DNA of 64,000 bases, from the IMG/VR virus record IMGVR_UViG_3300029305_001221, positions 18,537-82,536 of that record; one strand, written 5' to 3'. This document shows positions 4,051-47,365 of the stretch, piece after piece. The notes under the pieces were generated by a model. That model did no database searches. It was not told the DNA's origin and saw only the letters and a list, made by a program, of their open reading frames with translations. A program made the translations under genes and the position numbers. Each line of letters starts with the position of its first letter. Positions within the stretch are counted from its first letter, which is position 1. The DNA comes from a virus (Duplodnaviria; Caudoviricetes).

Positions 4051-4075
4051 CGCGAGATAAACAGTCCCTTTTATG
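4051..4075 (+). promoter_or_regulatory. Conserved phage promoter-like motif, copy 1
   Basis: CGCGAGATAA ACAGTCCCTT TTATG, followed by AAGGGAG and an ORF. Confidence 0.75.
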
Positions 4076-4092
4076 AAGGGAGATGTCGGAAG

Positions 4093-6168: not shown

Positions 6169-7452
6169 ATGAGAAAAGAAAAACCGCCCTTCCTCTATCC
6201 ATACCAAATGGACGCTGTGAAGAGAATGCGAAATGGCTGTATCTTATGCGGAGGCGTCGGGAGTGGCAAGAGCAGAACTGGTTTATATTACTATTTCAAA
6301 GAACAAGGCGGTAGTATAGATCCAGATTATATTCCTATGAAAAAACCAAAAGATCTATACATTATAACGACTGCCCGTAAGAGAGATACTTTGGAGTGGG
6401 AAGGCGAACTTGCTAATTTCATAATCTCAAAAAATCCGGAGGCAAGTTATTACAAAAACAAAGTAGTTGTCGACTCGTGGAATAACATTGGTAAGTACGT
6501 GGATGTGAAAGGCGCATTCTTCATTCTAGACGAGCAGAGGCTAGTCGGAAGCGGTGCCTGGGTCAAAGCGTTCTATAAAATCGCTGCGAAAAACGATTGG
6601 ATTCTACTATCCGCTACTCCAGGAGATACATGGCAAGACTACAGACCGGTATTTATCGCAAACGGTTTCTATAAAAACAAAACCCATTTTAATAGGGATC
6701 ATATTGTGTGGGACCATCGAGTTAAGAAATATCCGAAAATCGATAGGTATATAAACGAAGGTCGACTGATTAGACTGCGTAATCGTATTCTAGTTGATAT
6801 GGATTTTAATCGACCGACTACTTCTCACCATGAAGACGTATATGTGCATTATGATATTCAGCTATACAAGGATACGACCCGAAATCGAGTCAACCCATTC
6901 GAGATGGAAGTCTGGGATGACGGATCTGAACATAATCCTCCCATTAAAAGTGCTAGCGAGTTGTGTTATATTTGGCGCAAAATTGTTAATTCTGCTGAAT
7001 CTCGTCAAGTTGCATTATGTGAGCTATTTGAGAAGCATCCGAAGATGATCGTGTTTTACAATTTTGACTATGAACTTGATATTTTAAAGAGTATCTATTT
7101 CGGCGAAGATGTCGAGGTAGCAGAATGGAATGGACATAAGCATCAACCGGTCCCAACAAGCGATAGGTGGGTATATTTATGCCAATATACGAGTTCTTGT
7201 GAGGGTTGGAATTGCATAACGACCGATACCGTCGTCTTCTATTCTCAGAATTACTCTTATAAAGTTATGGAGCAAGCCTCTGGTCGAATTGATAGATTGA
7301 ATACTCCTTTCCGAGACCTATATTATTATCACCTCAAAACGCGGGCTGGTATTGATTTGGCCATTAGTAAAGCTCTGAAAGAGAAGAAGAATTTCAACGA
7401 GGGTCGTTATGTGCAGCGAATGTCTAAAGGTTATGAGAGAAGAGCCGCATAA
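6169..7452 (+). CDS. Superfamily 2 DNA helicase
   Basis: Motif I GGVGSGKS, II ILDEQR, III SATP, VI QASGRIDR. Confidence 0.88.
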   Translation: MRKEKPPFLYPYQMDAVKRMRNGCILCGGVGSGKSRTGLYYYFKEQGGSIDPDYIPMKKPKDLYIITTARKRDTLEWEGELANFIISKNPEASYYKNKVVVDSWNNIGKYVDVKGAFFILDEQRLVGSGAWVKAFYKIAAKNDWILLSATPGDTWQDYRPVFIANGFYKNKTHFNRDHIVWDHRVKKYPKIDRYINEGRLIRLRNRILVDMDFNRPTTSHHEDVYVHYDIQLYKDTTRNRVNPFEMEVWDDGSEHNPPIKSASELCYIWRKIVNSAESRQVALCELFEKHPKMIVFYNFDYELDILKSIYFGEDVEVAEWNGHKHQPVPTSDRWVYLCQYTSSCEGWNCITTDTVVFYSQNYSYKVMEQASGRIDRLNTPFRDLYYYHLKTRAGIDLAISKALKEKKNFNEGRYVQRMSKGYERRAA

Positions 7453-7470
7453 TTAACAGCTCCTATTATA
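7446..7470 (+). promoter_or_regulatory. Conserved promoter-like motif, copy 2 (overlaps helicase stop)
   Basis: CGCATAATTA ACAGCTCCTA TTATA, then GAAAGGAG. Confidence 0.65.
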
Positions 7471-7488
7471 GAAAGGAGTTGATTTCTC

Positions 7489-7808: not shown

Positions 7809-7833
7809 CGCGAAGTTTTCAGACTCCTTTATA
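7809..7833 (+). promoter_or_regulatory. Conserved promoter-like motif, copy 3
   Basis: CGCGAAGTTT TCAGACTCCT TTATA, then GAAGGGAG. Confidence 0.75.
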
Positions 7834-7851
7834 GAAGGGAGTTGAACAACT

Positions 7852-8130: not shown

Positions 8131-8155
8131 CGCGAAGTTTTCACGTTGTATTATG
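8131..8155 (+). promoter_or_regulatory. Conserved promoter-like motif, copy 4
   Basis: CGCGAAGTTT TCACGTTGTA TTATG, then AAGGGAGG. Confidence 0.75.
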
Positions 8156-8171
8156 AAGGGAGGTCTAGAAT

Positions 8172-8431: not shown

Positions 8432-8456
8432 CGCGAAATTTGCAAAACGTATTATG
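8432..8456 (+). promoter_or_regulatory. Conserved promoter-like motif, copy 5 (followed directly by a terminator-like hairpin)
   Basis: CGCGAAATTT GCAAAACGTA TTATG, then AGAGGGA...TCCCTCT TTTC. Confidence 0.72.
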
Positions 8457-8527
8457 AGAGGGAAACCACCGCGTATCCCTCTTTTCTATTTCGAGGAACA
8501 ACATTTATATTTTAGGAGGAACTATAT

Positions 8528-24537: not shown

Positions 24538-24546
24538 GGAGGAAGT

Positions 24547-26823: not shown

Positions 26824-26848
26824 CGCGAAGGAAACAAGCTCCTTTGTG
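26824..26848 (+). promoter_or_regulatory. Conserved promoter-like motif, copy 6
   Basis: CGCGAAGGAA ACAAGCTCCT TTGTG, then AAAGGAG. Confidence 0.72.
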
Positions 26849-26864
26849 AAAGGAGATGAGCTAA

Positions 26865-30100: not shown

Positions 30101-30640
30101 ACAAAGGTCATGAAGCAGATGCGTATACAATGCAGGGTTCGCTTCAGAGACGAAACAGGGCAGCTCTAGCTCGGAGAAAAAATGTAACATTCAGGCGAAA
30201 TTACAAGTGAGGTCATTATGGAAGTATTGAAACACGGTGGTAAGATCTATGGAGGTAGGTTGACTGCTGCTGAGAAAAAGGCTTTGCAGCTTGAACTCGA
30301 TAGAATGATTGCGGAAGAACGAGCTGCTATGAAAGCCGAGTACGAGAAAATGCGGCAGGATATTCTCAAGGATCTTGAGGAATTTAACAACAATAATTTA
30401 AAAGAGATCGATGCTATGTTCCTCTGGAGACTACATGAGCATGAGGGCTGGGGTCGTATTAAAATGAAGCGCTTTTATATTGACTTTCACAACGATATGA
30501 AGGCTTTGGGTGAGCGCTATGAGATGGAGACCTCTGAGGAGAAGATCTGGCTCTGCACTCATAAGCTTAAGGAATATGGCGTTGATCTCGATGAGTGGGA
30601 GAAGGAAGTAAAAATGCTGAACTCTGAGGACGCGAAGTAA
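27174..30640 (+). other. Small CDS cluster: 27174-27662 (TM), 27675-27986 (HGRW zinc ribbon), 27989-28288, 28293-28496, 28747-28959, 28973-29386, 29403-29747, 29744-29971, 29974-30210, 30218-30640
   Basis: Contiguous + strand ORFs with RBSs. Confidence 0.72.
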
Positions 30641-30655
30641 ACAGACTCCTTTATG
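30631..30655 (+). promoter_or_regulatory. Conserved promoter-like motif, copy 7 (overlaps last codons of the upstream gene)
   Basis: CGCGAAGTAA ACAGACTCCT TTATG, then AAAGGAG. Confidence 0.75.
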
Positions 30656-30670
30656 AAAGGAGTGATTGTT

Positions 30671-30952: not shown

Positions 30953-30971
30953 ACAAGGGCTCTTTCGTTTT
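30944..30971 (+). terminator. Intrinsic terminator overlapping the stop codon
   Basis: GAGCTCT GAACA AGGGCTC TTTCGTTTT. Confidence 0.6.
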
Positions 30972-31006
30972 ATTTCTGAAGTTATCTTAGGAAATTCTGA
31001 AGGTAG

Positions 31007-31653: not shown

Positions 31654-31669
31654 ATAAGGAGAAAAAAGT

Positions 31670-32281: not shown

Positions 32282-32285
32282 TTCT

Positions 32286-32840: not shown

Positions 32841-32853
32841 AGGAGCATGCTAA

Positions 32854-33186
32854 TTGACTACTAAACAACTCGTAGAGATCAGACGACGAAACGAAGCTGG
32901 GGAAAGCGATACCATGATTTCAGAAGCTCTTGGAATCGATCAATCTTACGTGTCCCATTGGCGAAGAACTCTTGGATTAAAACCGCAGGGTATCCATAAG
33001 CATCGCACCAAATACATATATTATATTTGGGATTCGAAAACTGACGAGCTATTATTCGTAGGTAGAGCCTCTGAGTGCGCTGAATTTCTCGGATATACAG
33101 CTATACAGAGCTTCTACGCATTGGCCAGCAGATCGAAGCATAAGCGCCGTAATACATATTACGTATTAAAGGAGAAAGAGGAGTAA
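32854..33186 (+). CDS. HTH DNA-binding protein with a NUMOD1-like C-terminal segment
   Basis: SDTMISEALGIDQSYVSHWRR; LLFVGRASECAEFLG. Confidence 0.6.
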   Translation: MTTKQLVEIRRRNEAGESDTMISEALGIDQSYVSHWRRTLGLKPQGIHKHRTKYIYYIWDSKTDELLFVGRASECAEFLGYTAIQSFYALASRSKHKRRNTYYVLKEKEE

Positions 33187-33189
33187 ATT

Positions 33190-34026: not shown

Positions 34027-34336
34027 TGCTTAGTTTCTTACTCGCCTTGGTTGCTATTTATATTCTGTTAGCGGTACCAAGGTCATACATACGGTTTCTG
34101 GTAGTATTGTCGATTGCGTTGGATGCTCTTCTGATTGGCGGAGCGTTGTGGTTGATTTTTGGGAGATAATTTATGCGTGATAAAAAGAATTTACGTAGAG
34201 TGAGCTTTGTGGTTAATTCGCAAACCCTTTGGCATTTGAAAAAGCTGGCTTCTGAGGCTGGATATTCTGATCGGGAGCTGGGAAGAGTTATAGATAAACT
34301 GGTTCGCGAGAGAGTTGCGGAAAGGAATAATGACAG

Positions 34337-35261
34337 ATGACAGAATGTAAATATGCCAGGAATTATGGTGCTGATCGAGTTGGTCTAGTTGATATTCGCT
34401 GTATGGGAACTAAAGAGTTAGATCCATGTTCTGGGTTTGATAACTGTCCGCGGTACACGCCGAATTATAAGACGAACGAGAATTGGCTGAAGGGTCTGAG
34501 TAAAACTGAGTTTGCTCGGTTTATGGCTACGACTACCGATATTTGTCAGCATTGTGCTAGTCTAGACTGCTACGAGGTTGACTGTATTGATGCGTGGGAA
34601 CACTGGCTTGGTTTGGAACATACGGAGGGCAAGTGATGGATACGTGGGACTTTAAATATCGAATTCCTTGTCTTATTTGCGGTGATGTGGTCGAGACAGT
34701 TTATCCTGATACCAATCCTAAGATCTGCGAGTCTTGTCGGTGTACGATAATGGCTCTGAAAAAGAGAAAATGTTTGATTTGTGGTGAGGATGTGGAGGAT
34801 GCAGGTGACCAGTTCGTGTGCAATTCTTGTAAAGGGGTAATAGCGCCATTTAGATATCCTAGAGAAGTTGACGCCGATGTGGCCGTGCATGAATTAATGA
34901 CGAAGCATCTGATTATTCCTGTCGAGACTGCGGAACCTATGAAAGATCCTTGTATCGACTGTGATAAGAGTTGGACTGATAGTTCGGGTTGGAAATGCAA
35001 ATATGAGTGCCCGAAGAGATTCGCGTATCTGGATAGTTTGATGAATGGGTAGGAGGAGGCTCTGTAATTATGATTGATGTTATCGACGATATCATGACTG
35101 AACTTAAGGATTGTAAAGCTAGAATCAATGAACTTGAGGCGGAACTTGATAAGGTTAAGCGCGAACGAGATGGATATTTTCGTAAATTGGAGATCGTTCG
35201 GAAGTATTTGAATACTCTCCAGAAGCAGGGCAAACAAGCTAAGCCGGTAAAGAAAGCGTGA
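34337..35261 (+). other. CDSs 34337-34636, 34636-35052 (two CLICG zinc ribbons), 35070-35261 (coiled coil)
   Basis: ORFs with plausible starts and Cys patterns. Confidence 0.68.
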
Positions 35262-35463
35262 GCAAATGTGGTGGCATTGGATTAAGGTTATTTATCTCGC
35301 TATTTCTGGCACTGTATTCTTTTGGCTTATGAATACAGAGAAAGAGCATATCGGTTTTACGGAGGTTTTGGCGGGCCTGATTGTCGGTGGTTTATGGCCT
35401 ATTGCGCTCGTAATTGGGTGGTTTAAGGTTCTTAAAAAGTAGTGAAAAGGGTGGTGAAACTTA

Positions 35464-35691
35464 TTGAATCGTAAGGAATTTGGCGATATGTTTCGAGAAA
35501 AAGTGGCTGGCGAGCTCGTTAAGCAGGGTATTAATAAGGCTGAATTGGCTCGAAAATCTGGCTTGGCAGCCTCTACTGTGACCGAATATATGCACGGGGA
35601 TAAGGTCCCAAGCCTTCTAAATGCTGCAAAAATTGCGTCTGTTTTAGGCTTTTCACTGAGCGAATTTGACGTTGAAAATAGGAAAAGATGA
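35464..35691 (+). CDS. XRE-family HTH regulator
   Basis: GINKAELARKSGLAASTVTEYMHGDKVPSLLNAAKIASVLG. Confidence 0.85.
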   Translation: MNRKEFGDMFREKVAGELVKQGINKAELARKSGLAASTVTEYMHGDKVPSLLNAAKIASVLGFSLSEFDVENRKR

Positions 35692-35699
35692 GTAAAATC

Positions 35700-36085
35700 A
35701 TAAAAATTCGTGGCCACTTTTAAAAACAGGATTTGGCCAATTGGACAAATATTTGGCCAATTTTGCAACTTTTTAAGAAAAACGTTGTTCGAGGTCACTT
35801 AAATATTCTTAATCGGGCTCGAAAAATTGACCAATTTTGCTCGTTTTTCGGCATTTTTTGGCCATTTTTTGCATTAGGATTTGGCCATTGGCCACTTTTG
35901 AAAATGGATTTGGCCACGGGAAAACCCAGTAATTGCAAGGGTTTGAGGGCTCTCTGGCCAAATGGTCAATTATTTTTCTTATTTAGTATAGAGTAAAATT
36001 GTAAAATATTTAATTTTAAAATTAAAAAAAGTGAAATTTCAATTCTATAATAAATAAGGGTAAAATGCGGAAAAGTGGCCACAAG
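35700..36085. repeat. AT-rich intergenic region with 9 TGGCCA palindromes (putative origin or operator array)
   Basis: TGGCCA at 35711, 35734, 35754, 35859, 35882, 35889, 35911, 35955, 36076; near matches TGGACA/TGACCA/TGGTCA; nearly pure A/T tract about 35970-36064. Confidence 0.7.
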
Positions 36086-36115
36086 TTGATTTTATGCGTA
36101 ACAAGGAGAACTTCT

Positions 36116-36559
36116 ATGGAATACGTGAATAACGCTGCTCGACTAGTCTATGACGATTTCGTCAACAATTATCCAAATCTGGCTAGAGAGATTGTCGACT
36201 GGTATCAGAGCGGTCAACTAGAGATTGTAATTAAACTTCGTAATGATGAACGTCTCGCCTATGACTTCACAAATCATACCTATAGATATTTGAAAAAGTT
36301 TAAAGAGAGCGAGTACGGCCTACCCGACTTCTCGGAAGAAGAATGGTCTAGAGGTTTCGCTAGTAAACTTAGAAAAAAAATGCGAGTCAAGGGCATGAGT
36401 GGAAAAGAGCTTGCAGCTCGATCTGGAATTAGCGAGTCTCGCATTAGTCAATACTTAAATGGTAAGACAGTGCCGAGTGCAGTGGCCGTCGCTAGACTTG
36501 CCCTTGCGCTGGAATGCTCCGTGTCGGAATTGTCGTGGTTCGCTGAGTTGAGTTTGTGA
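36116..36559 (+). CDS. Protein with C-terminal XRE HTH
   Basis: GMSGKELAARSGISESRISQYLNGKTVPSAVAVARLALALECSVSEL. Confidence 0.85.
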   Translation: MEYVNNAARLVYDDFVNNYPNLAREIVDWYQSGQLEIVIKLRNDERLAYDFTNHTYRYLKKFKESEYGLPDFSEEEWSRGFASKLRKKMRVKGMSGKELAARSGISESRISQYLNGKTVPSAVAVARLALALECSVSELSWFAELSL

Positions 36560-36581
36560 GGGTGGAGGAGAGGGAAGTAAA

Positions 36582-36842
36582 ATGAAAAAGAAGAGTAATA
36601 GAAAAGATACCATTGACGACATTAAAAGAAAGATCGAGAGTTTGAACGGGCGCATCAATGCCGCGAACATACGTAACGATAAAATTAAACGGTCCAAACC
36701 TCGTGGTATCACAGATATTGTTATTAACCAACATACTATAGATCGGAATGACCGCATCATTGCTAAAAACCAACATGACGTCGAAGTGCTAAGAGAAGCC
36801 GCCCATATCTTAGCTGGAAGAACTTATAAGGTGGACTTCTAA
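36582..36842 (+). CDS. Basic hypothetical protein
   Basis: RBS GGAGAGGGAAG. Confidence 0.65.
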   Translation: MKKKSNRKDTIDDIKRKIESLNGRINAANIRNDKIKRSKPRGITDIVINQHTIDRNDRIIAKNQHDVEVLREAAHILAGRTYKVDF

Positions 36843-36853
36843 TACATATTCTT

Positions 36854-36878
36854 CGCGAATCTAACAATCAGCTTTATA
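36854..36878 (+). promoter_or_regulatory. Conserved promoter-like motif, copy 8
   Basis: CGCGAATCTA ACAATCAGCT TTATA, then GAAAGGAG. Confidence 0.75.
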
Positions 36879-36894
36879 GAAAGGAGTGAACTTT

Positions 36895-37149
36895 ATGTTC
36901 GGAAACACGATTTTCAAAAACACACAAGGTTACTTCACCAAAGCAGCTAGCGATCAGCTCGATGTTACTCTCGAAGCTGCCAAGAAACTTGTGAAACTTA
37001 CTTCTATGGATTGGTATCTTGTAGAAGGAACACTGTATAACAAGGTTCGTGGTGCTTGCTTCGCAGAGGGCATCGTATGCGGTCTGGCCTGCGCTGGTGC
37101 AGCCTGTGTGGTAAACAAAGCTGTCAAGAAGCATAAAGAAGAAACCTAA
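36895..37149 (+). CDS. Small cassette protein with hydrophobic Cys/Gly/Ala-rich C-terminal helix
   Basis: ATG 8 nt after AAAGGAG; GACFAEGIVCGLACAGAACVV. Confidence 0.72.
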   Translation: MFGNTIFKNTQGYFTKAASDQLDVTLEAAKKLVKLTSMDWYLVEGTLYNKVRGACFAEGIVCGLACAGAACVVNKAVKKHKEET

Positions 37150-37159
37150 TTTAAAGACT

Positions 37160-37197
37160 AGAGGTTTGCGTAAAACACGCAGCCTCTTTTCTTTTTC
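37160..37197 (+). terminator. Intrinsic terminator closing the cassette
   Basis: AGAGGTTTGCGT AAAAC ACGCAGCCTCT TTTCTTTTT. Confidence 0.78.
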
Positions 37198-37290
37198 TGG
37201 GAGAGCGCAGCGATAGCAGCCTCTTTTATTTTTTTGTCCGAAAGTATTGAAGACAATCCACCTCCACATAATTTTACTCAAAAATAGGGA

Positions 37291-37315
37291 CGCGAAAAAA
37301 ACAGGTCCTTTTATG
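37291..37315 (+). promoter_or_regulatory. Conserved promoter-like motif, copy 9, upstream of the nuclease-RNAP operon
   Basis: CGCGAAAAAA ACAGGTCCTT TTATG, then a leader hairpin. Confidence 0.75.
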
Positions 37316-37423
37316 GAGAGAAGAGAAAATAAACGGCGAAATTTTACAAACACCATTATTTTTTCATTCTCTCTGAGACTGTAACGATATTGAATAAAAA
37401 CTAACAAGAAAGGAGGCTCATTC

Positions 37424-37723
37424 GTGGCAAGAAGTTCAAAATTAGAAAGCGGATTTCAAGACAGACTTATTTCGGAACTTAAAACGCTTTTCCCAGGCTG
37501 CATGGTCTTCAAGATGGACCAGATTCAAGGCATCCCTGATCTACTCATTCTATATGGAAAGAAATGGGCCTCCCTTGAAAATAAGAAATCGCTCAAAGCT
37601 AAGCGTCAACCAAATCAAGAGTACTATGTGGAGCTTATGAACAAGATGTCGTTCTCGAGATTCATCTGTCCAGAGAACAAGGAGGAAGTGTTAAGTGAAC
37701 TTCGCAAAGTTTTTATGGGCTAA
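37424..37723 (+). CDS. VRR-NUC domain nuclease (Holliday junction resolvase-like)
   Basis: ESGFQDRLISELK...GIPDLLILY...LENK...RPNQEYY. Confidence 0.82.
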   Translation: MARSSKLESGFQDRLISELKTLFPGCMVFKMDQIQGIPDLLILYGKKWASLENKKSLKAKRQPNQEYYVELMNKMSFSRFICPENKEEVLSELRKVFMG

Positions 37724-38216
37724 GGACTTCGAGTATAACGTCGACAAGTTCGGTAAAGATCCGAAACATAATGTCTTATACATCGTGGGTCTTAGCGGTT
37801 CTGGAAAAACATACACCGCTGAAAGACTTGCGGATGCTGACACGGACGTTGTGAATCTTGACGACTATAACAATGATTATCTATCAGACGAAGCTTACTA
37901 TTATACAGTCGATAGAATCATTTATGATAGTACACAATTTGCGAGTAACCTGTATCCGAAGCGAAAACTAATTGTCGAAGGGATACAGCTGATCGACATG
38001 CATCCCAATTTCTTCAAGGACTACTGTCTTATTGTAAAGCGCACTAACATCCTTACTGCTTTTTACAGAAAGACCGAACGAGATAGAGGTGAAGAGAGTC
38101 TCGTAAAAACTCTTTGGAGAAATCGGCACTATTTGAAATGGTACATAACCTGTAGTAGGAAATTAAACACTCTTGTGAAAAGTTTGAGGGGAGACGCTTA
38201 TGGGATTCGTATTTAA
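37695..38216 (+). CDS. P-loop kinase-like protein
   Basis: YIVGLSGSGKT Walker A; LIVEG. Confidence 0.65.
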   Translation: MNFAKFLWAKDFEYNVDKFGKDPKHNVLYIVGLSGSGKTYTAERLADADTDVVNLDDYNNDYLSDEAYYYTVDRIIYDSTQFASNLYPKRKLIVEGIQLIDMHPNFFKDYCLIVKRTNILTAFYRKTERDRGEESLVKTLWRNRHYLKWYITCSRKLNTLVKSLRGDAYGIRI

Positions 38217-38763
38217 TGAACATCACAAATTATCAGGTCTGCATGCGCCTTTCAGTCCTAGTCAGCCTAGCTGGTTGAACTACGATGATGAGAAGGTTCT
38301 AGATGTATACCGAAATAAGAAAGCCGCTGAGATGGGCACCAGACTTCATGCCTGGGCAAAGGAGACCATCGATCTCGGCATCAAACAGCCTCGTTCCAAG
38401 AAAACTCTTTGCGCATATGTAAATGATGCAATTGGTTTCGGTATGGACACAGAGGTTGTTCTATTTTATTCTGAAAGATTCTTTGGCACTGCTGATGCTA
38501 TCTGCTTTAGAGATGGCGTTCTCAGAATTCATGATCTTAAAACTGGAAGCACTAAAGTCAAGATTGAACAGTTGGAAGTCTATGCTGCCCTTTTCTGTCT
38601 TGAGTATCAGATCAAACCTACTAAGATCGAATTCGAGTTAAGAATCTATCAGAATGACGAAGTGCTATACGCAAATCCGACTCCTGAAAAGATTCAGGAA
38701 ACTATGGATACGATTGTCCATCTTGACAAATTATTACAAAAAGCTGAGTACGAGGGGGTATAA
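38200..38763 (+). CDS. Cas4-like / DUF2800-type PD-(D/E)xK exonuclease
   Basis: HAPFSPS, GTRLH, E...FGTADAI...IHDLKTG, QLEVYA. Confidence 0.82.
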   Translation: MGFVFNEHHKLSGLHAPFSPSQPSWLNYDDEKVLDVYRNKKAAEMGTRLHAWAKETIDLGIKQPRSKKTLCAYVNDAIGFGMDTEVVLFYSERFFGTADAICFRDGVLRIHDLKTGSTKVKIEQLEVYAALFCLEYQIKPTKIEFELRIYQNDEVLYANPTPEKIQETMDTIVHLDKLLQKAEYEGV

Positions 38764-38766
38764 ACC

Positions 38767-41514
38767 ATGAATTCCGTTGTGGAAGAAATGAGAGCCATAC
38801 TCGAAGGCGACGAAGATGCGCTGTTACACTATGGCGTCAAGAGACGTTCTGGCAGATACCCCTGGGGCTCGGGGGATACGCCTTTCCAGCGTAGCGGAGA
38901 TCTATTGAGTCGAGTTGATGAACTCAAAGATCAGGGCTTGTCTGAGAAAGAAATTGCTGACAGCATTGGTCTGTCTACCACTGATTTGAGAATGCAGGTT
39001 CGAGTTGCTAATCATGAGAGAAAGCAGCTTGAATACGACAGAATCAAGTCTATTATGGACGACGGTATTACTAGTCCTACTGAGATTGGTAGAATTATGG
39101 GTAAATCTGAATCTACCATTCGTTCTATGATTAAGGAAAACACCGTTGCCAATCGTAACAGAGCTCGTGCTACTGCCGAGACTCTTAAGGCCGAGCTTGA
39201 GACGAAGGGAATCCTGGACGTTGGTGCTAATGTCGAATATGACTTGGGCTGTTCTAAGGGAACTCTGAAAGAAGCTCTGTTTATTCTGGAAACTGAAGGC
39301 TATAAGCACTTTGGTGTTGGTATGCCTCAGGTTACTAACAAGAAGCAGCAGACTAACCTGGAATTGATTGCTAAATCCGATAAGGATATTAGTGAACTTC
39401 AGAGAGACGTTTACAATGACTATAGTCTTGTTAAGTCTGTCGGTGAATACCATTCCAAAGATGGTGGTAAAACCTATGCAAAGCTTGAGTATCCTGCTAG
39501 TTTGGACTCTAATCGAGTAGGTATTCGTTATGCCGAAGAAGGCGGTAAGAGTAAAGATGGCGTCATGGAGATTCGTCGTGGTTGCGCTGATCTGGATCTC
39601 GGTAACTCTCATTATGCTCAGGTTCGAATCCTTGTTGATGGAACTCACTATCTCAAGGGCATGGCTATGTATGGTGATGACAAGGACTTTCCTCCTGGCA
39701 TCGACCTGATGTTCAATACTAACAAGTCTGTTGGTACCGATAAGATGAAGGTCCTTAAGAAGATTAAGGAAGATGACCCTGACAATCCGTTTGGTGCGAA
39801 CATCAAAGCCAACGGTCAGAGTAAATACATAGACAAAGACGGTGTTGAAAAGCTTTCTCCTATTAATAAATTAAAAGAAGAAGGCGAATGGGACACTGCA
39901 TCTTCTAAGAATCTGTCGTCTCAGTTCCTTTCTAAGCAGCCTATGCAGCTTATTAGAAAGCAGCTTGATCTTACTTATGCTGACGCAGCTGCTGAATACG
40001 ATGAGATCTGTTCTCTGAACAACCCGACCATCAAGAAGAAACTCTTGCTTGAATTCGCTGATAACTGTGACGGTTCTGCCGTCCATCTTAAGGCTGCAGC
40101 TCTGCCTAGACAGAAGACTCAGGTTATCCTGCCTGTCGATGCATTAAGAGACAACGAGATCTACGCTCCTAACTTTAGACATGGCGAAGAAGTATTCCTG
40201 GTTCGTTATCCTCATGGTGGTACTTTCGAAATCCCTCGTCTGAAGGTTAACAACAATAATAAGTCTGCTAAGAATGCCTTGGGTAACACTACTGATGCAG
40301 TTGGTATTAACTCCAAGGTTGCAGAGAAGCTGTCTGGTGCGGACTTCGATGGTGATACTGTCATCGTCATCCCTAGTAACAACAAGGTTAAGATCTCGTC
40401 CAAGGATACGCTGAAGGATCTTAAGGACTTCGATGCTAAGGTCCAGTACTCCACTGAAGGTAAGACTGGTATCCGTCTGATGAAGGAGTCTGAGAAGCAG
40501 AAGCAGATGGGGATTGTCTCTAACCTTATTACTGACATGACCCTGCAGGGGGCTAAGGAATCGGAGATTGCTAGAGCGGTTAAGCACAGCATGGTTGTTA
40601 TCGATGCTGTTAAGCATAAGCTGGACTTCAAGCAGTCTGAAAAAGACAACGGTATTGCCGAGCTTAAACAGCGGTACCAGAAGCACATCAATGAGGATGG
40701 TACTGAGAAGTATGGTGGCGCATCCACTCTGCTCTCTCGCCGTAAACAGACGGTAGAAGTACCTGAGACTAGAGGCTCCGGTAGGATAGACCCCGAGACT
40801 GGTAAGGTTATCTACAAGACTACTGGTCGTACCTACATCGATAAGGATGGTAAGGTTAAGGAGGCTACTAAGAAGGAGAAGCTCCTCCTCATGGTGGATG
40901 ATCTACACGACCTATCTACTGGTACCCCTCAGGAGGAGGCCTATGCTGACTATGGTAATAAGATGAAGGCGTTAGCTAACCAGGCTCGTAAAGAGTATCT
41001 GGCAACCCCTCGTCTTAAGTACGATCCTAGTGCAAACGTTACTTATAAGGATGAGGTTAACTCTCTGCTGTCTAAGCTTAATACTGCAGCTAAGAACGCT
41101 CCTAGAGAACGACAGGCACAGGCTATTGCTAACTCTGTAGTCAAGGCCAAGACCAATGCTAATCCTGATATGGGTAAAGATGAGGTTAAGAAGCTTAGAG
41201 ATCGTGAGCTTCATAAAGCTCGTGAATCTGTTGGCGCTGACAGTAAGGGCTCTAAGTTCACACTTACTGACAGAGAATGGGAAGCTATTCAGGCTGGCGC
41301 TATCAGTGACTCTAGACTGACCAGCATTCTTCGCTACACTGAAGACAGTGAGATCAGACAGCGCGCAACGCCTAGAACTGTTAGCACATTGTCTAGCGCT
41401 CAAGTCACTAGAATCAAAGCCCTTGCCGCGAATGGTCACACAAACCAAGAGATCGCTGACATCATGGGCAAATCTACATCTACAATTTCTAAGTATTTGA
41501 AAGGAAGTGATTGA
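38767..41514 (+). CDS. Putative single-subunit two-barrel (double-psi beta-barrel) RNA polymerase with four HTH motifs
   Basis: Catalytic loop LSGADFDGD preceded by LVRYPH (the conserved R-x-P of DPBB-B); candidate DPBB-A lysine in THYLKG; three N-terminal HTHs and one C-terminal HTH. Confidence 0.75.
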   Translation: MNSVVEEMRAILEGDEDALLHYGVKRRSGRYPWGSGDTPFQRSGDLLSRVDELKDQGLSEKEIADSIGLSTTDLRMQVRVANHERKQLEYDRIKSIMDDGITSPTEIGRIMGKSESTIRSMIKENTVANRNRARATAETLKAELETKGILDVGANVEYDLGCSKGTLKEALFILETEGYKHFGVGMPQVTNKKQQTNLELIAKSDKDISELQRDVYNDYSLVKSVGEYHSKDGGKTYAKLEYPASLDSNRVGIRYAEEGGKSKDGVMEIRRGCADLDLGNSHYAQVRILVDGTHYLKGMAMYGDDKDFPPGIDLMFNTNKSVGTDKMKVLKKIKEDDPDNPFGANIKANGQSKYIDKDGVEKLSPINKLKEEGEWDTASSKNLSSQFLSKQPMQLIRKQLDLTYADAAAEYDEICSLNNPTIKKKLLLEFADNCDGSAVHLKAAALPRQKTQVILPVDALRDNEIYAPNFRHGEEVFLVRYPHGGTFEIPRLKVNNNNKSAKNALGNTTDAVGINSKVAEKLSGADFDGDTVIVIPSNNKVKISSKDTLKDLKDFDAKVQYSTEGKTGIRLMKESEKQKQMGIVSNLITDMTLQGAKESEIARAVKHSMVVIDAVKHKLDFKQSEKDNGIAELKQRYQKHINEDGTEKYGGASTLLSRRKQTVEVPETRGSGRIDPETGKVIYKTTGRTYIDKDGKVKEATKKEKLLLMVDDLHDLSTGTPQEEAYADYGNKMKALANQARKEYLATPRLKYDPSANVTYKDEVNSLLSKLNTAAKNAPRERQAQAIANSVVKAKTNANPDMGKDEVKKLRDRELHKARESVGADSKGSKFTLTDREWEAIQAGAISDSRLTSILRYTEDSEIRQRATPRTVSTLSSAQVTRIKALAANGHTNQEIADIMGKSTSTISKYLKGSD

Positions 41515-41517
41515 TGA

Positions 41518-41790
41518 ATGAGAGTTTCCATGTTAACTACTGTTGACAATCCTTACGATCCTTTCGATAACTTCGATTCTTGGTATCGTTATGACATGGA
41601 CAAAGGTTATTCTACTTGCTGCTATCTCGATAGAATCTCTCGAACTTCCGATCAATTGACTGAGGAAGAGAATAATGATGAGAATGAACGTGCTATCAAC
41701 GAGATTCTTAAGTATGATTTCCAAAATCTATACAAAAAAGTTAGCAGAGAAGAAACAAACGAGATACGTGTGAGTACTGGTGAGGAGTAA
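41518..41790 (+). CDS. Small acidic protein downstream of the RNAP
   Basis: [33 protein letters not shown]. Confidence 0.75.
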
Positions 41791-41910
41791 ACCACCCAAG
41801 GGGGGGGTCTTCGAAAAATACACCCCCTACCCAGATCGCGCGCCTCATTGATATTTTCCCGGGGGTCGATTTTTGAAAAACAATTTCACTTTTCGCCCCC
41901 TGGGTTGTTT
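41791..41910. other. Probable physical genome end (cos region); candidate 9-nt overhang CGCGCGCCT at 41837-41845
   Basis: Intergenic junction between RNAP module and virion module; G8 run 41800-41807, C5 41823-41827, CCCGGGGG around 41858-41865. Confidence 0.5.
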
Positions 41911-41947
41911 TATATTATCAGAAATTTTAGAAAGGAGCTGACATCCG

Positions 41948-43576
41948 ATGGCCCATGAACATAGGATCTATGATACTGACAGGCATTTTCAGATCAATCC
42001 TGTTACTCGAGCAATTTCTAATCCCAGTAACAAGGTAACTCTTATTCAGTATGACCATAATTCAGAGCTGTTCGGCTTTGAGATTCCGCGTTATGTCGAC
42101 GGCCACGACATGTCGCTCTGTAATCGCGTCGAAGTTCATTATATTAACATCGGTGCGAAGTCTCAGAATACTGGTTTATACGAAGTAACTGATTTACAGG
42201 TTCTTCCCGAAGATGAGGATATAGTTACTTGTACCTGGCTTATTTCTCAGAATGCAACACAGCTTGTCGGTAGTCTTCATTTCATTGTTAGATATGCTTG
42301 TGTCGAGGAAGATAATACAATTTCCTATAACTGGAACACGGCAATTTATTCTAGCATTAAGGTCTCGAGCGGTATCTATAACTCTGAGCATGTGATCGAT
42401 CAGTATGCCGACATTCTCGAGGAGTGGAAACAGGCTCTCTATGCAGAAGGTCTTAAGATTAGTTCTGTTGAACAGACTGTTGTCTCCACAGAGGATAGTG
42501 GTGTAAATGAGTTTACCTTTACCATGACTGACGGTAGTAAAAACATTTTCATCGTGAGAAATGGTTCCAAGGGTGATATTGGTAATCCTTTCACTTATGA
42601 GGATTTTACTGCTGAACAGTTGGCAGCACTTACTGGACCGACTGGCTCCTCCATCAAGACTATCACTAGAACTTCTGGCACTGGAGCTGCTGGTACCATC
42701 GACACTTACACGGTCGCTATGACCGATGGTTCAACTTCGACTTTCCAGGTTTATAATGGCGCTGATGGTGAGGATGGAGCCTCTATTCAGTCTATTACTC
42801 GAACTTCTGGTACAGGTGCCGCTGGTACTACTGACACTTACACCGTTACTCGGACTGACGGAACTGTGTGTGGCACCTTTAATGTCTATAACGGCGCTAA
42901 CGGAACAGGTGCTGGCGATATGACTATGGCTGTCTATGATCCTCAGGGAAAGGCGCAGGATATTTTTGCTTATGTCGATAACGCAATTAGCGACATTCCG
43001 ACTCCTGATGTATCCGGACAGATCAAGATTCATAATACCGACACCACTGCTCACGCGGATATTCGTGCTGCCATAGACGCGATTGAGATCCCGACGGTTC
43101 CCACCAAGGTGAGTGCGCTTGAGAATGATAGTGGCTATATAACTGCAGACGTAATTCCCACGGATGTAAGCGCTTTTACGAATGATAGCGGCTATATCAC
43201 TACAGATGCAATTCCTACGAAGACTAGCGAATTGACTAATGATAGCGGTTATATCACCGAAAGCGCAGTTCCTACGAAGACTAGCGAATTGACTAACGAT
43301 AGCGGCTATATCACTACAGATGCAATTCCTACGAAGACTAGCGAATTGACTAATGATAGCGGTTATATCACTGCAGACGCAATTCCTACGGTTCCTACGA
43401 ATGTTAGCGCTTTTACAAATGATAGTGGCTATATAACCGCGGAAGCAATTCCTACGATTCCGACCAACGTAAGCGCGTTCACGAACGACAGCGGTTATGC
43501 GACTGAGACATATGTGGACTCCGCTATCGGCGATATCGCTACTGTACTCGATTCTATTAATGGCGAGGTGATCTAA
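41948..43576 (+). CDS. Virion fibre/adhesin with BppU-like N-terminal domain, collagen-like triplets and NDSGY repeats
   Basis: N-terminal QYDHNSE-F-FEIPRYVDGHDMSLCN domain shared with 52307 and 58634; GxxG triplets. Confidence 0.72.
   Translation: MAHEHRIYDTDRHFQINPVTRAISNPSNKVTLIQYDHNSELFGFEIPRYVDGHDMSLCNRVEVHYINIGAKSQNTGLYEVTDLQVLPEDEDIVTCTWLISQNATQLVGSLHFIVRYACVEEDNTISYNWNTAIYSSIKVSSGIYNSEHVIDQYADILEEWKQALYAEGLKISSVEQTVVSTEDSGVNEFTFTMTDGSKNIFIVRNGSKGDIGNPFTYEDFTAEQLAALTGPTGSSIKTITRTSGTGAAGTIDTYTVAMTDGSTSTFQVYNGADGEDGASIQSITRTSGTGAAGTTDTYTVTRTDGTVCGTFNVYNGANGTGAGDMTMAVYDPQGKAQDIFAYVDNAISDIPTPDVSGQIKIHNTDTTAHADIRAAIDAIEIPTVPTKVSALENDSGYITADVIPTDVSAFTNDSGYITTDAIPTKTSELTNDSGYITESAVPTKTSELTNDSGYITTDAIPTKTSELTNDSGYITADAIPTVPTNVSAFTNDSGYITAEAIPTIPTNVSAFTNDSGYATETYVDSAIGDIATVLDSINGEVI
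43090..43510 (+). repeat. Seven coding tandem repeats of about 57 nt (19 aa, IPTKTSELTNDSGYITxxA)
   Basis: NDSGY x7; near-exact DNA duplication at a 114-nt period around 43191-43370. Confidence 0.9.
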
Positions 43577-44472
43577 TGGGAACGATTGTTGATAAGTTGA
43601 ATAAACTCCTTTCTACGAAGAATGCGATTAAGGCTTCTATCATAGCTAAGGGTCAGACTATTTCCGATACCGACCCCTTCGCTAGCTACCCCGCAAAGAT
43701 CGATGCCATTGAGACCGGAGTTGACACGAGCGACGCTACAGCTACTGCTGGCGATCTACCAGAAGGTGTGACTGCTTATGTTAATAGTGAGAAGGTAACT
43801 GGTACTGTTCCTGTAAGTAAGGCCGGAAGCTCTTTACCATCTGATTATTACACAGTAGGTGTAAGCGCAAACGGAGTCGTTGCAAGAGGTAAGGTAACAT
43901 CTGACTACTTAGTTCGCTCTGGTGGATATACCAGAATCGAGATTCCCGCAGAAAATTTCGGTGACGCTACCGCCGTCGATGTTGCTTCCGGCAAGACCTT
44001 CACTAGTGCTGCTGGTTTGAAAGTTACCGGTACCATGGTTGCAGATGGTTGGGAAAAAGTTCAATTCATGCTCGAAGGTTCCGGAGAAGCTAGTTTGTCG
44101 ACTGATATTTACGGCAACGGCGTGTTTTATATAGATTTCGCATCTCCTATATCGGATTTTTGCGGTTTATCTATATTTTACGAATACGATGATGGTCCTG
44201 GTTATCAATCGTATGCTTCGTCTATTGTGCCCGGATTTAGTGATGATACGTTTATAGGTATGTATCATAATTTTGACTGGGCTAATGAAGATTCTGATGG
44301 ATTTATTTCTGGAACAGAGGGAGACGCCCTCTATGATTGGGGTATTACTGCTTCCTTAGTATCGTCCACGAGAATTAAAGTAGATATGAACGAATTAGGC
44401 AATTGGCTCATGGACTCTAGTGATGCTAGCGGTCACTATGGGACCGGAACCGTCTTTGTCAAATACGTATAA
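43576..44472 (+). CDS. Tail fibre-like virion protein
   Basis: DKLNKLLSTKNAIKASIIAKG N-terminus and DATATAGD...TAYVN-EKVTG repeat typical of phage fibres. Confidence 0.65.
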   Translation: MGTIVDKLNKLLSTKNAIKASIIAKGQTISDTDPFASYPAKIDAIETGVDTSDATATAGDLPEGVTAYVNSEKVTGTVPVSKAGSSLPSDYYTVGVSANGVVARGKVTSDYLVRSGGYTRIEIPAENFGDATAVDVASGKTFTSAAGLKVTGTMVADGWEKVQFMLEGSGEASLSTDIYGNGVFYIDFASPISDFCGLSIFYEYDDGPGYQSYASSIVPGFSDDTFIGMYHNFDWANEDSDGFISGTEGDALYDWGITASLVSSTRIKVDMNELGNWLMDSSDASGHYGTGTVFVKYV

Positions 44473-45415: not shown

Positions 45416-47365
45416 ATGTCTTTTAACGCACGAATTAAAAACAAAAGAGACACAGCTTCCAATTGGGAAACCAACAATCCGATACTGTTAGCCGGTGAAT
45501 TGATCATCGTCGATACCAATGCAGGTGACGTCAGATTCAAGATCGGTGACGGTACCAAAACCTACACTCAGCTTCCGTTCCAGGACGAATCGTTATATAA
45601 CGTCCTGAGTACTAAGGCCGATTCCGCCGATCTAGAGTCTCTTCAGGCTTCCATCGTTCAGTCCGACCTCTCTCAGACCGACTCCACTCAGATTGACTAC
45701 GTGAAGGGTGTTCTTAGAAATGAGCATCTACCCGAGGGGTATCCGTATAAGAGCGAAGAAACCATTCTGGATGGTACTTTTGAGTTTGTAGACAGTGATG
45801 GTGTGTATATGCGCCAGATCGCGGATGAGAACTTTACCTATGTCGATGGTAAATCTTATACTGTTATTTGGGATGGCGAAGCTTATCAATGTGTTGCTAC
45901 TACCGTTTATAATATACCTGTACTTGGAAATCTTGGGATTGCGGGTATGACCGATACAGGCGAACCGTTTTTGTTCATGGATCAGGGCAATGGTCAGAAA
46001 ATTATTGGAACAAACGACACTGCCGCTACTCATACGGTTACCGTTTGTGCGGAAATCGCCTACCCCATGTCCGAGGAGTACTTGCCTGACCATACTCACA
46101 GTCAGTATCTAACCGCTATTCCTAGTGAATACGTCACTGAGACTGAACTGACCGCTAAAGGTTATCTAACCGCTATTCCTAGTGAATACGTCACTGAGAC
46201 TGAACTGACTGCCAAGGACTATGCTACCAAGACCGAAGTGGCAGCTAAGGCCGATTCCGCCGATCTAGAGTCCCTTCAGTCTGAATTCGATGACCATACT
46301 CACGACTTCTCCGAACTGACCGTCACCGATCCCGAAGCTGCCAAGACCGCTCTCGCTATTGAGAATGGGATGGTGCTGAAGAATCTGCAGGCGGCGATGC
46401 CGAGTTCTAAAATCTGGAATACGGTCGCCTACGGTAACGGTAAGTTTGTAGCAGTAACATCTAGCGCTAGTTCTAAAATCATAGCATACAGTGAAGACGG
46501 TGTCACCTGGACATCTGCTGGCCTGCCTACGTCTTCAAAATGGAACTCCATTACCTATGGTAACGGTAAGTTTGTAGCATTGGCGTATTCATCCAATCTT
46601 GTAGTATACAGCGAAGATGGTATCACTTGGAATTATGCCACACTCCCTATTAGTGACATTCGGATTGCCGTCGCCTATGGTAACGGTAAGTTTGTAACAT
46701 TAGAACGTGGGGGTGACGCCGCAGCATATAGCGAAGACGGTATCGCTTGGACTGCTACCACGTTGTCTATTATTAAAAATTGGAGCTCCATTACCTATGG
46801 TAACGGTAAGTTTGTAGCAATATCGGAATCTGCTACTGCAGCATACAGCGAAGACGGTATCACTTGGACTGCTACTACTATGCCTAACAATGGCAATTGG
46901 AAGACCGTCATCTACGGTAATGGAAAGTTTGTAGCTGTGGGAAGCGGTGAGACCATTGCGGCCTATTCCGAAGATGGTATCGCGTGGGCTGCTACTAATA
47001 ATATGCCTATTGGTCAAAGATGGTGGTCTGTCGCTTATGGTAATGGTAAGTTTGTAGCAACAGCGGAGTCTTCTGATATTGCAGCATACAGCGAAGACGG
47101 TATTACTTGGACTGCTACTACTATGCCTGGGTCTAAAAACTGGTATTCCGTCGCCTACGGTAATGGTAAGTTTGTAGCTGTGTCAAATGATGTTGCAGCA
47201 TATAGCGAAGACGGTATCACTTGGCATTCCGAACTTAAGATGATCACCCAAAATGGAGAAGATGTCACTGCCGACACTCTGATCGTCCTGGATCACACTC
47301 ATGATGAGTATCAACGTACTCTGACTATCACAGACGATGGCGCCGGTAATGTAGTCATTTCTTAA
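45416..47365 (+). CDS. Receptor-binding-type protein: Mtd_N/hyaluronidase-like N-terminus + 7-bladed YGNGKFV beta-propeller
   Basis: NWETNNPILLAGE...FKIGDG; 7 x W..YGNGKFV...YSEDG.W; 60-nt duplication YLTAIPSEYVTETELTAK. Confidence 0.78.
   Translation: MSFNARIKNKRDTASNWETNNPILLAGELIIVDTNAGDVRFKIGDGTKTYTQLPFQDESLYNVLSTKADSADLESLQASIVQSDLSQTDSTQIDYVKGVLRNEHLPEGYPYKSEETILDGTFEFVDSDGVYMRQIADENFTYVDGKSYTVIWDGEAYQCVATTVYNIPVLGNLGIAGMTDTGEPFLFMDQGNGQKIIGTNDTAATHTVTVCAEIAYPMSEEYLPDHTHSQYLTAIPSEYVTETELTAKGYLTAIPSEYVTETELTAKDYATKTEVAAKADSADLESLQSEFDDHTHDFSELTVTDPEAAKTALAIENGMVLKNLQAAMPSSKIWNTVAYGNGKFVAVTSSASSKIIAYSEDGVTWTSAGLPTSSKWNSITYGNGKFVALAYSSNLVVYSEDGITWNYATLPISDIRIAVAYGNGKFVTLERGGDAAAYSEDGIAWTATTLSIIKNWSSITYGNGKFVAISESATAAYSEDGITWTATTMPNNGNWKTVIYGNGKFVAVGSGETIAAYSEDGIAWAATNNMPIGQRWWSVAYGNGKFVATAESSDIAAYSEDGITWTATTMPGSKNWYSVAYGNGKFVAVSNDVAAYSEDGITWHSELKMITQNGEDVTADTLIVLDHTHDEYQRTLTITDDGAGNVVIS

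Follow-up and report, generated by a model that had tools for sequence, protein, structure and literature searches.

How would a single-chain, two-barrel RNA polymerase (RNAP) working without a sigma factor find the genes it is to transcribe? The question is posed by a gene in a 64,000-nucleotide stretch of a tailed phage (Caudoviricetes), positions 18,537 to 82,536 of IMG/VR virus record IMGVR_UViG_3300029305_001221; we call this whole stretch the window, use its numbering unless the record is named, and refer to the virus as the source phage. The gene is an open reading frame (ORF) on the + strand, 38767..41514, that begins with ATG and encodes 915 amino acids. In our judgement its product is probably a single-chain, promoter-specific, sigma-independent two-barrel DNA-dependent RNAP that transcribes the non-structural (early/middle) genes and is possibly delivered with the virion. 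The reading of the gene as a two-barrel RNAP with helix-turn-helix (HTH) modules, made in an original prediction from the letters of the window, is supported by the results described here; it has already been published for the family on computational grounds and so is not new. In itself the gene is an unexceptional addition to a family already known from computational prediction, for which we describe a conserved promoter-like element, the geometry of its putative start site and hints of virion carriage.

All peptides quoted in the original prediction are found in the 915-residue ORF: LVRYPH at residues 478-483 and LSGADFDGD at 522-530, together with the HTH-like segments LSEKEIADSIGLS at 58-70, SPTEIGRIMGKSESTIR at 103-119, EYDLGCSKGTLK at 157-168 and TNQEIADIMGKSTSTISKYL at 892-911. 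The first two had been taken as the active site of a polymerase, a DxDGD loop preceded by an R-x-P loop, and an alignment of 88 representatives with 44-56% identity to the query protein bears this out. R480, P482, H483 and D526-F-D-G-D530 are invariant in it, and among them D526, D528 and D530, the aspartates whose conservation across homologs had been put up for checking. Since R-x-P-H and DFDGD are invariant in all 88 representatives, the signature is not a chance motif, and its absolute conservation at this level of identity argues for selection on catalysis. The two loops are encoded as follows.

40204..40215, + strand: R480-Y-P482-H483 loop; R, P and H invariant in the representatives.
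40342..40356, + strand: D526-F-D-G-D530, the predicted catalytic metal-binding loop; all five residues invariant in the representatives.

R480-x-P482 precedes D526 by 46 residues, a spacing that is 43 in YonO of phage SPbeta and 45 in the RNA-silencing enzyme QDE-1 (PMC2919709). Eight residues are universal among two-barrel enzymes, in QDE-1 D709, R738, K743, R962, P964 and D1007/1009/1011; the Rpb1 equivalents of the Arg-x-Pro pair are R446/P448, and the barrel residues of Rpb2 are D837, K979 and K987 (PMC2919709). Five of the eight are unambiguous in the 915-residue RNAP. Upstream of R-x-P-H, Q285, R287, K297, D313 and K331 are likewise invariant among the representatives and D264 is conserved in at least 90% of them; D264 or D313, R287 and K297 are candidates for the catalytic residues of barrel 1, presumably equivalent to D709, R738 and K743 of QDE-1.

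An AlphaFold2 model built with the family alignment has a predicted local distance difference test score (pLDDT) of 85.9 and a predicted template modelling score (pTM) of 0.77. Its top Foldseek matches in the PDB are all two-barrel polymerases: QDE-1 (E 3e-9), plant RDR2, the Thermus-phage enzymes gp62/gp64 and gp96, and then Rpb1/beta-prime chains. VIA, a structure aligner independent of Foldseek, agrees. It scores QDE-1 at Z 14-15.1 over about 370 residues, the best alignment (2j7n, Z 15.1) covering 376 residues at a root-mean-square deviation (rmsd) of 4.4, with model residues 242-750 lying against QDE-1 681-1196, and it scores RDR2 at Z 15.0, P74-26 gp62 at Z 10.7-13.5 (362 residues at 13.5), gp64 at Z 11.5, Rpb1/beta-prime chains at Z 9.5-10.9 and gp96 at Z 7.3. 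The polymerase fold that had been anticipated is thus the one that is modelled, residues ~242-750 aligning with the single-chain two-barrel enzymes QDE-1, RDR2, gp62 and gp64, and two double-psi beta-barrels (DPBB) can be delimited in it.

39493..39891, + strand: barrel 1, a beta-like DPBB, residues ~243-375; the region of the full-length model aligned to QDE-1, RDR2 and gp62.
40105..40410, + strand: barrel 2, a beta-prime-like DPBB, residues 447-548; rmsd 1.9-2.1 A and Z ~9 against isolated or designed DPBB, Z 9.5-10.9 against Rpb1/beta-prime chains.

Residues 251-371 are all-beta in the full-length model. Matches in BFVD comprise phage 'RdRP' entries (RdRP, RNA-dependent RNA polymerase), P23-45 gp64, fragments of crAss-like virion RNAPs, giant-virus Rpb1 homologues and LEF-9; YonO is absent among the listed BFVD and PDB structure matches. 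At the sequence level, a search of the PDB with the protein and with the family profile returned HTH matches only, leaving the polymerase core undetected, and the Pfam RdRP (PF05183) match, which covers residues 517-627 only, falls below its gathering threshold (21.3 vs 23.8 bits). From the modelled two-barrel fold and the conservation of its residues, polymerase chemistry is the predicted activity of the protein. The description of the enzyme as very compact at 915 residues was overstated, however, as YonO has 839 and the solved gp62/gp64 chains have ~590.

The HTH modules that had been proposed are also real. Two HTHs followed by a winged helix are modelled at the N-terminus, and at the C-terminus an HTH scores above the Pfam cut-offs, the sole domain of the protein that Pfam recognizes with confidence.

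38902..39207, + strand: two tandem HTH units, residues ~46-147, from the domain model, VIA and Pfam.
39211..39438, + strand: winged-helix domain, residues ~149-224, aligning with TFIIIC eWH, GntR-type, Rpc34 and Pol II pre-initiation complex chain W domains at Z 5.3-7.3.
41380..41511, + strand: C-terminal HTH, residues 872-915, matching Pfam HTH_38 (E 9e-11), HTH_23 and Sigma70_r4_2.

Modelled alone, residues 40-245 reach a pLDDT of 93.6 and form a tri-helical HTH of the sigma-region-4/LuxR type, a second HTH, a long helix and the winged helix. Residues 40-103 align with HTHs of the sigma-28, sigma-L region 4, GerE and NarL types at Z 5-6.8, and the best stretch for Pfam Sigma70_r4 is residues 106-123. 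Because Z scores of 5-7.3 are middling, the N-terminal HTH and winged-helix assignments are to fold class only; Foldseek of the N-terminal domain against the PDB returned nothing at E<=0.001. The C-terminal HTH aligns with those of Tc3, IstA and serine recombinases at Z ~7 and rmsd 1.6-2.5. Profiles of the region-4 type match residues 888-911 and 106-123, generic HTH families scoring higher, and with regard to sigma region 2 no such family is reported by Pfam and residues 40-103 align with HTH domains only. The RNAP is not a sigma factor, though its modules may act like sigma region 4. That the HTHs substitute for a sigma factor, as the original prediction had it, is a proposal made more plausible by a promoter-like motif that travels with the gene.

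This motif is 27 nt long and reads CGCGAAAAaaACA..c.CttTTATG followed by purines. It is laid out as C1 G2 C3 G4, an A-rich segment at positions 5-11, C12 A13, C18 and T21 T22 A23 T24 G25, with purines after. The window holds nine copies between 4051 and 37291, all on the + strand and just upstream of genes, where 0.2 are expected from shuffles. The copies, supported by the window scan and a position weight matrix (PWM), are the following.

4051..4077, + strand: motif copy (window scan and PWM).
7446..7472, + strand: motif copy (window scan and PWM).
7809..7835, + strand: motif copy (window scan and PWM).
8131..8157, + strand: motif copy (window scan and PWM).
8432..8458, + strand: motif copy with no ATG in the next ~50 nt, which may head a non-coding unit (window scan and PWM).
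26824..26850, + strand: motif copy (window scan and PWM).
30631..30657, + strand: motif copy (window scan and PWM).
36854..36880, + strand: motif copy (window scan and PWM).
37291..37317, + strand: best-scoring copy, heading the nuclease-RNAP operon (40.3 bits with a PWM from other phages only).

Across the whole 82.5-kb record, a PWM trained on other phages only finds 28 sites on the + strand and 0 on the - strand, with ~0 in shuffles, and none of the 28 lies downstream of the RNAP gene. The same polarity is seen in relatives. A strict pattern gives 5 forward, 0 reverse and 0 control sites in FP_oengus. The strict window-type pattern has no match in ReqiPoco6, P118, Miek, Secretariat or BitterVaud1, and it is simply too narrow, because de novo discovery found diverged versions in those phages: unbiased self-similarity scans recover in-register versions in Mudcat, ReqiPoco6, Secretariat, Miek, P118 and BitterVaud1. 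A de novo motif with the same architecture in register is present in phages of seven genera in two phyla (Rhodococcus, Gordonia, Streptomyces, Arthrobacter, Bifidobacterium, Lactococcus and Faecalibacterium). In a metagenomic sample of 70 related IMG/VR loci, each of at least 8 kb, 68 loci are positive, with 172 sites on the coding strand and 0 on the other strand or in shuffles. Motif density in these loci is 0.28/kb upstream of the RNAP gene vs 0.005/kb downstream, a 58-fold difference, and a copy 600-1600 nt upstream of the RNAP start heads its operon in 68 of the 70. Among the 172 sites C1, G2, C3, C12, T21, T22, A23, T24 and G25 are conserved at 91-100%, and positions 26-28 are always purines. 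The core reads CTTTATG in the source phage and TATAATG in actinophages, and these two motif classes divide by phylogeny. A literature search with literal motif strings gave unrelated matches only. The variant in Streptomyces phage Miek (~24569) contains CCCTATAGTGAG, which we take to be the reverse complement of the T7 promoter core; its orientation is opposite and the likeness is probably a coincidence.

Where transcription would start is indicated by what follows the motif. A tRNA-like gene at record positions 11412-11512 (7025-7125 nt before the window start), called by ARAGORN as 'tRNA-???' and possessing an aberrant anticodon loop, has its first nucleotide precisely at position 26 of a motif copy, and Shine-Dalgarno sequences start at motif positions 27-29. 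Together these markers point to initiation at about position 25-26, and they disfavor a sigma-type start 6-8 nt past the hexamer, since such a start would cut into the tRNA-like gene and the Shine-Dalgarno sequences. With a start at position 26 the tRNA-like RNA would carry no 5' leader. T7-type promoters run into +1 in the manner that we propose for this motif. The flanks of the motif copies, as read here, show nothing like a -35 hexamer at 17 bp. Where a -10 hexamer would stand, the Clostridia-type motif has TTTATG or TATGAA; sigma-A needs a T at hexamer position 6, so that this core would serve it poorly. Host promoters of the two phyla share only the -10 hexamer. Motif sites precede non-coding units as well as ORFs. 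The motif was also considered as a translation signal and rejected in that role, as many copies lack a nearby start codon and one abuts the tRNA-like gene.

As to the reader of the motif, the RNAP is the sole annotated DNA-binding protein noticed in the group-wide conserved blocks of Koert et al. (10.1101/842583), and the P23-45 RNAPs were matched to their promoters by the same co-occurrence logic (PMC10770324). From the constant association of motif and gene and the geometry just described, we infer that the enzyme binds the motif, through one or another of its modules.

How the first molecules of the enzyme could reach the cell is suggested by the extreme N-terminus, which precedes the HTH units.

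38809..38898, + strand: N-terminal leader, residues 15-44, with the box L-x-HYG-x-K-R-x-SGRYPWGSG, a candidate virion-incorporation signal.

Leader residues H21, G23, S28, G29, R30, G34 and G36 are invariant or nearly so in the 88 representatives, and with a pLDDT below 50 the leader looks like a disordered linear motif in the model. A related box, L-x-H-Y/F/R/K-G-V-K-G-M-K-W-G, or in a longer form (D/E)xxL-x-H-Y/F-G-V-K-G-M-K-W-G, lies near the N-terminus of otherwise unrelated proteins, one of them annotated as an acetyltransferase. ReqiPoco6 has five to seven box proteins between its terminase and portal genes (17.6-21.9 kb), with counterparts in Secretariat (9.4-12.5 kb), Miek, P118, BitterVaud1 (~7.1, 9.2 kb) and FP_oengus (~40.2 kb). 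The box proteins of ReqiPoco6, Secretariat and FP_oengus adjoin the terminase gene, mostly between terminase and portal, and orf7 of phage 1706 (2501-3889) and its counterparts stand just before the terminase gene. In the original GenBank record of phage 1706 the depositors labelled orf75, which has 37% identity to the source RNAP over 1000 residues, as 'structural protein', a label that ReqiPoco6 repeats; orf7, the sole other box-bearing protein of 1706, is also labelled structural. Judged from sequence, the box could be a common capsid-loading leader for cargo proteins, and this suggests that the polymerase is injected. Injection would account for the first transcription of an operon that has the enzyme's own promoter at its head.

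A second route to the first enzyme is suggested by the surroundings of the gene.

36065..36559, + strand: XRE/Cro-type HTH regulator upstream of the RNAP operon (Pfam HTH_3, E 9e-12).
37424..38763, + strand: three co-oriented genes between the 37291 motif and the RNAP gene, encoding an endonuclease (phrog_93), a P-loop protein and a Cas4/PD-(D/E)XK exonuclease (phrog_3953).
41518..41790, + strand: 90-residue gene of phrog_4303 (E 5e-35) with an LTT-x-DNPYDPF motif, starting 4 nt after the RNAP stop.

The XRE regulator, together with a sigma-70-like site at 36022-36051, shortly precedes the RNAP operon in the same orientation; no sigma-70-like site scored on the + strand at 36600-38400, ahead of the operon. 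A serine recombinase is encoded elsewhere in the record, and by its gene content the source phage is probably temperate. In that case host RNAP would have to supply the first enzyme after induction of the prophage, and the XRE switch is a possible point of entry for it. The synteny of exonuclease and RNAP recurs in FP_oengus, ReqiPoco6, Miek, Secretariat and 1706. In 66 of 80 loci the phrog_4303 gene immediately follows the RNAP gene, as it does in those named phages for which the flank was inspected; T8, D10, N11, P12, P15 and W22 of its product are invariant. With no Pfam lead and no usable Atlas match, this 90-residue protein may be an accessory factor or subunit.

Put together, the mechanism would run as follows. 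Catalysis would be carried out by D526-F-D-G-D530 and R480-x-P482 of barrel 2 together with the conserved acidic and basic residues of barrel 1, and promoter choice would fall to the two HTHs and the winged helix at the N-terminus and the HTH at the C-terminus, which would read the 27-nt element, with transcription starting at about motif position 25-26. The 28 sites, which head small gene cassettes, RNA genes and the nuclease-RNAP operon, would then be its promoters, the copy at the operon giving positive feedback. The first enzyme could be carried in the virion by means of the disordered HYG...WG leader and injected with the DNA, or, in a temperate member after induction, could be made when host RNAP reads through from the XRE switch.

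Several other accounts of the same observations have to be weighed against this proposal. The nearest to it keeps enzyme and promoters and dispenses with virion carriage, host RNAP making the polymerase first, as with T7 RNAP or YonO. We regard this as possible, though on the doubtful side. The serine recombinase, the XRE regulator and the upstream, co-oriented site at 36022-36051 fit such an arrangement, as do the location of the gene in the non-structural arm and the production of YonO after induction (PMC5467207), but the structural label of 1706 orf75 and the box shared with virion-module proteins do not, and directly before the operon a strong copy of the motif stands in place of any host-type promoter that scored. 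The two routes are in any case not mutually exclusive. That the motif serves host sigma-A as a promoter or answers to another phage regulator, with the polymerase transcribing something else such as late genes, seems to us unlikely. The perfect TATAAT of the actinophage motif invites this explanation, and YonO does transcribe late genes from a single start (PMC5467207), the source RNAP gene itself bordering the late region. Yet the upstream half of the motif (CGCG, A-tract, ACA), which is no -35 element, keeps its register in phages of two host phyla, TTTATG makes a poor -10, and the positions of the tRNA-like gene and the Shine-Dalgarno sequences favor initiation directly behind TATG. The structural arms revealed no shared motif, although no search was aimed at a different motif there.

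The remaining two accounts concern the chemistry itself. An RdRP that amplifies or primes on RNA would accord with QDE-1 and RDR2 as the closest solved structures, with the weak Pfam RdRP match and with the labels in PHROG and RefSeq, but we consider it very improbable. Kinship of fold is the sole origin of those labels; YonO, whose active site is laid out alike, transcribes DNA (PMC5467207), and the structural neighbours gp62/gp64 serve phage transcription (PMC10770324). The source protein carries four modules of the type that binds double-stranded DNA, alongside a DNA motif placed like a promoter, and QDE-1 itself has been crystallized on DNA templates according to PDB entry titles. Scarcely credible is a catalytically inactive relic that acts only as a DNA-binding or structural (pilot) protein, even though most annotations name an HTH DNA-binding protein and the labels in 1706 and ReqiPoco6 a structural one, because the catalytic signature and many further core residues are invariant in the 88 representatives.

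A number of points nevertheless tell against the promoter-specific, possibly virion-delivered RNAP that we favor. The searchable literature gave no biochemical or transcript-mapping evidence for any PHROG 4291 member, the family to which the protein belongs, and a look for RNA runs over window positions 30000-39999 listed none. The reader of the motif is deduced from co-occurrence, and as the carriers are all relatives, shared ancestry could explain part of the pattern; in the actinophages the perfect TATAAT core could be used by host sigma-A. The three catalytic residues of barrel 1 are placed by the stretch aligned to QDE-1 from 681, short of a residue-by-residue mapping, and the HTH fold matches of the models are middling at Z 5-7.3. 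With respect to delivery, the 'structural protein' label of orf75, on which virion presence of the family would depend, is a depositor's annotation. The RNAP gene lies in the early/replication arm, headed by its own motif and outside the structural module, whereas the virion RNAP genes of N4 and crAss-like phages sit among late/structural genes. Since the source phage is probably temperate, virion delivery would also not be the sole way to start.

Comparison with relatives and with characterized enzymes places the system more precisely. The closest homologues in named phages are those of FP_oengus (54% identity to the source RNAP), of Arthrobacter, Gordonia and Streptomyces phages (45-48%) and orf75 of 1706 (37%). 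What these PHROG 4291 relatives have in common are the terminal HTHs, the catalytic motifs, a Cas4-like exonuclease upstream, phrog_4303 downstream and the promoter-like motif. The source phage differs from them in its size (>82 kb), in being probably temperate and in its denser array of 28 sites. The actinophages, 1706 and P118 have lytic genomes of ~55-60 kb (78 kb in ReqiPoco6), in which no more than ~450 nt separate the gene from the physical right end; in the FP_oengus record it is mid-genome.

YonO, a single chain of 839 residues, has a like signature at nearly the same position, R492-S-P-H followed after 43 residues by D535-N-D-G-D. It is a demonstrated DNA-dependent RNAP for the SPbeta late operon, with one start site, and is made after induction; its promoter and factor requirement were left open (PMC5467207). 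Aligned by hhalign with the single YonO sequence, the family profile gives a probability of 0.2 and no alignable similarity beyond the signature, and no Bacillus phage is among 250 tblastn matches. The YonO paper makes no mention of helix-turn-helix domains (PMC5467207), YonO itself not having been scanned for them here. While YonO serves a late operon from one start site, the source enzyme would serve dozens of sites in the early region.

The closest solved phage structures are the non-virion enzymes P23-45 gp64 and P74-26 gp62, with chains of ~590 residues. For each of these Thermus-phage RNAPs a separate conserved promoter motif is described, and relatives without the virion enzyme also lack the AT-rich motif (PMC10770324); the paper makes no mention of HTH domains. 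The virion enzyme gp96 is carried as a tape-measure fusion, in contrast to the short leader proposed for the source RNAP. A profile search detected no sequence similarity to the Thermus-phage gp62/gp64/gp96. QDE-1 and RDR2 are the best structure matches across both barrels and the helices that follow, with alike spacing of R-x-P and DxDGD, but they are eukaryotic RNA-silencing enzymes acting on RNA or single-stranded templates, and they have no counterpart of the terminal HTH modules, the alignment running over ~240-750. The virion RNAPs of N4 and of crAss-like phage phi14:2 (gp66) are injected to begin early transcription without help from the host, a strategy that the source RNAP would share were it carried in the virion. 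The N4 enzyme is a T7-like right-hand polymerase of ~3500 residues, and gp66 has ~2180.

The family is abundant and in part already labelled. The match to PHROG 4291 ('RNA-dependent RNA polymerase') is full-length (E=0, 1186 bits, residues 11-914 vs profile 4-908 of 909), a family that takes in Lactococcus phage 1706 orf75, Faecalibacterium phage FP_oengus and >250 actinophages. By tblastn 250 phage records match, 249 of them covering at least 80% of the query, from hosts that include Arthrobacter, Gordonia, Streptomyces, Rhodococcus, Curtobacterium, Microbacterium, Bifidobacterium, Lactococcus and Faecalibacterium. In metagenomes >8000 clusters at 90% identity scored, and 894 clusters at 50% identity have E<1e-30. 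The phage collection holds no near-identical DNA for window positions 36000-44000. That automated annotation might see an HTH protein only was a correct forecast, as 24 of 40 sampled GenBank homologues are called 'helix-turn-helix DNA-binding domain protein'; another four are labelled RdRP, one 'putative RNA polymerase' (FP_oengus, 54% identity) and one 'structural protein' (ReqiPoco6). PHROG 4291 and several RefSeq records thus carry a polymerase label already. Ruprich-Robert and Thuriaux (2010) placed the phage 1706 protein by PSI-BLAST among five distant YonO-like families (PMC2919709). Koert et al. (2021) described the family with HTHs at both ends, an RdRP match by HHpred and the DxDGD loop, proposed polymerase activity, and made the protein a signature gene of a phage group of Actinobacteria and Firmicutes (10.1101/842583). 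Their paper is silent on promoters (10.1101/842583), and phage-genomics papers on Arthrobacter, Rhodococcus and Microbacterium mention neither the motif nor a role for the enzyme.

Characterized two-barrel RNAPs need separate initiation factors, as in cells, or recognize promoters in ways that are not understood. An abundant family that combines a minimal core, four DNA-binding modules and a 27-nt element makes self-sufficient promoter finding directly testable. The most far-reaching version of our proposal, which we offer tentatively, is a self-contained system in which an RNAP of ~100 kDa finds its 27-nt promoter by its own HTH and winged-helix modules, starts after TATG and is delivered in the capsid by an HYG...WG leader that loads other cargo too. 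The promoter grammar is conserved from phages of Actinomycetota to phages of Bacillota. If the proposal is true, this would be the first two-barrel RNAP with a defined, portable mechanism of promoter recognition, a model for promoter recognition by an ancestral single-chain RNAP and a candidate orthogonal expression tool for Gram-positive bacteria; should the leader-box idea hold, it would point to a signal for capsid loading used generally by these phages. The present reading also corrects the name of the gene, now an HTH protein only or an 'RNA-dependent' polymerase, in hundreds of annotated phage genomes.

The wider window encodes a DNA polymerase, a helicase, a dNMP kinase, a FolD-like enzyme and many small cassettes, then the XRE switch, followed by endonuclease, P-loop protein, Cas4-like exonuclease, RNAP and phrog_4303; tail-fibre-like genes rich in repeats come last. 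The window ORFs scanned include no terminase, portal or major capsid gene. The record of 82,536 bp is rated 100% complete by CheckV and ends inside the tail-fibre-like region; with this end and the missing structural genes, it may be only part of a longer genome. In many related contigs, as in finished actinophage genomes, the sequence stops 300-450 nt beyond the RNAP gene, so that the gene would stand at the physical right end in many members. Runs of G and C (GGGGGGGG, CCCCC, CCCGGGGG and CGCCCCC) abound in the non-coding stretch 41790-41948 behind the operon. By analogy with finished relatives, which have a cohesive end at this place, it may be the cos region of the source phage.

Between 41948 and 47365 the coding sequence contains tandem repeats, with 57-nt units at 43088-43456 and ~120-nt units at 46397-47224. 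The genes of this interval have tail-fibre, Ig-like or hyaluronidase-like PHROG matches and probably encode receptor-binding proteins. The early region carries three tRNA genes called by ARAGORN: Met(cat) at 4241-4317, Leu(tag) at 5468-5552 and Leu(taa) at 6052-6137. Segments 9665-9841 and 15022-15198, which lie 5357 nt apart in different ORFs, are 71-80% identical in nucleotides, suggesting a duplicated protein domain. A cluster of small paralogous genes at 23104-24553 has near-identical ribosome-binding/start regions (TTAAGGAGGAAGTATGACTA, six copies) and blocks that are 72-90% identical. The genome of Mudcat has 45% G+C against 63.4% in its Arthrobacter host (PMC5513430), and the Rhodococcus and Gordonia relatives measured 53% G+C; having a polymerase and promoters of its own may loosen the dependence of such a phage on host composition.

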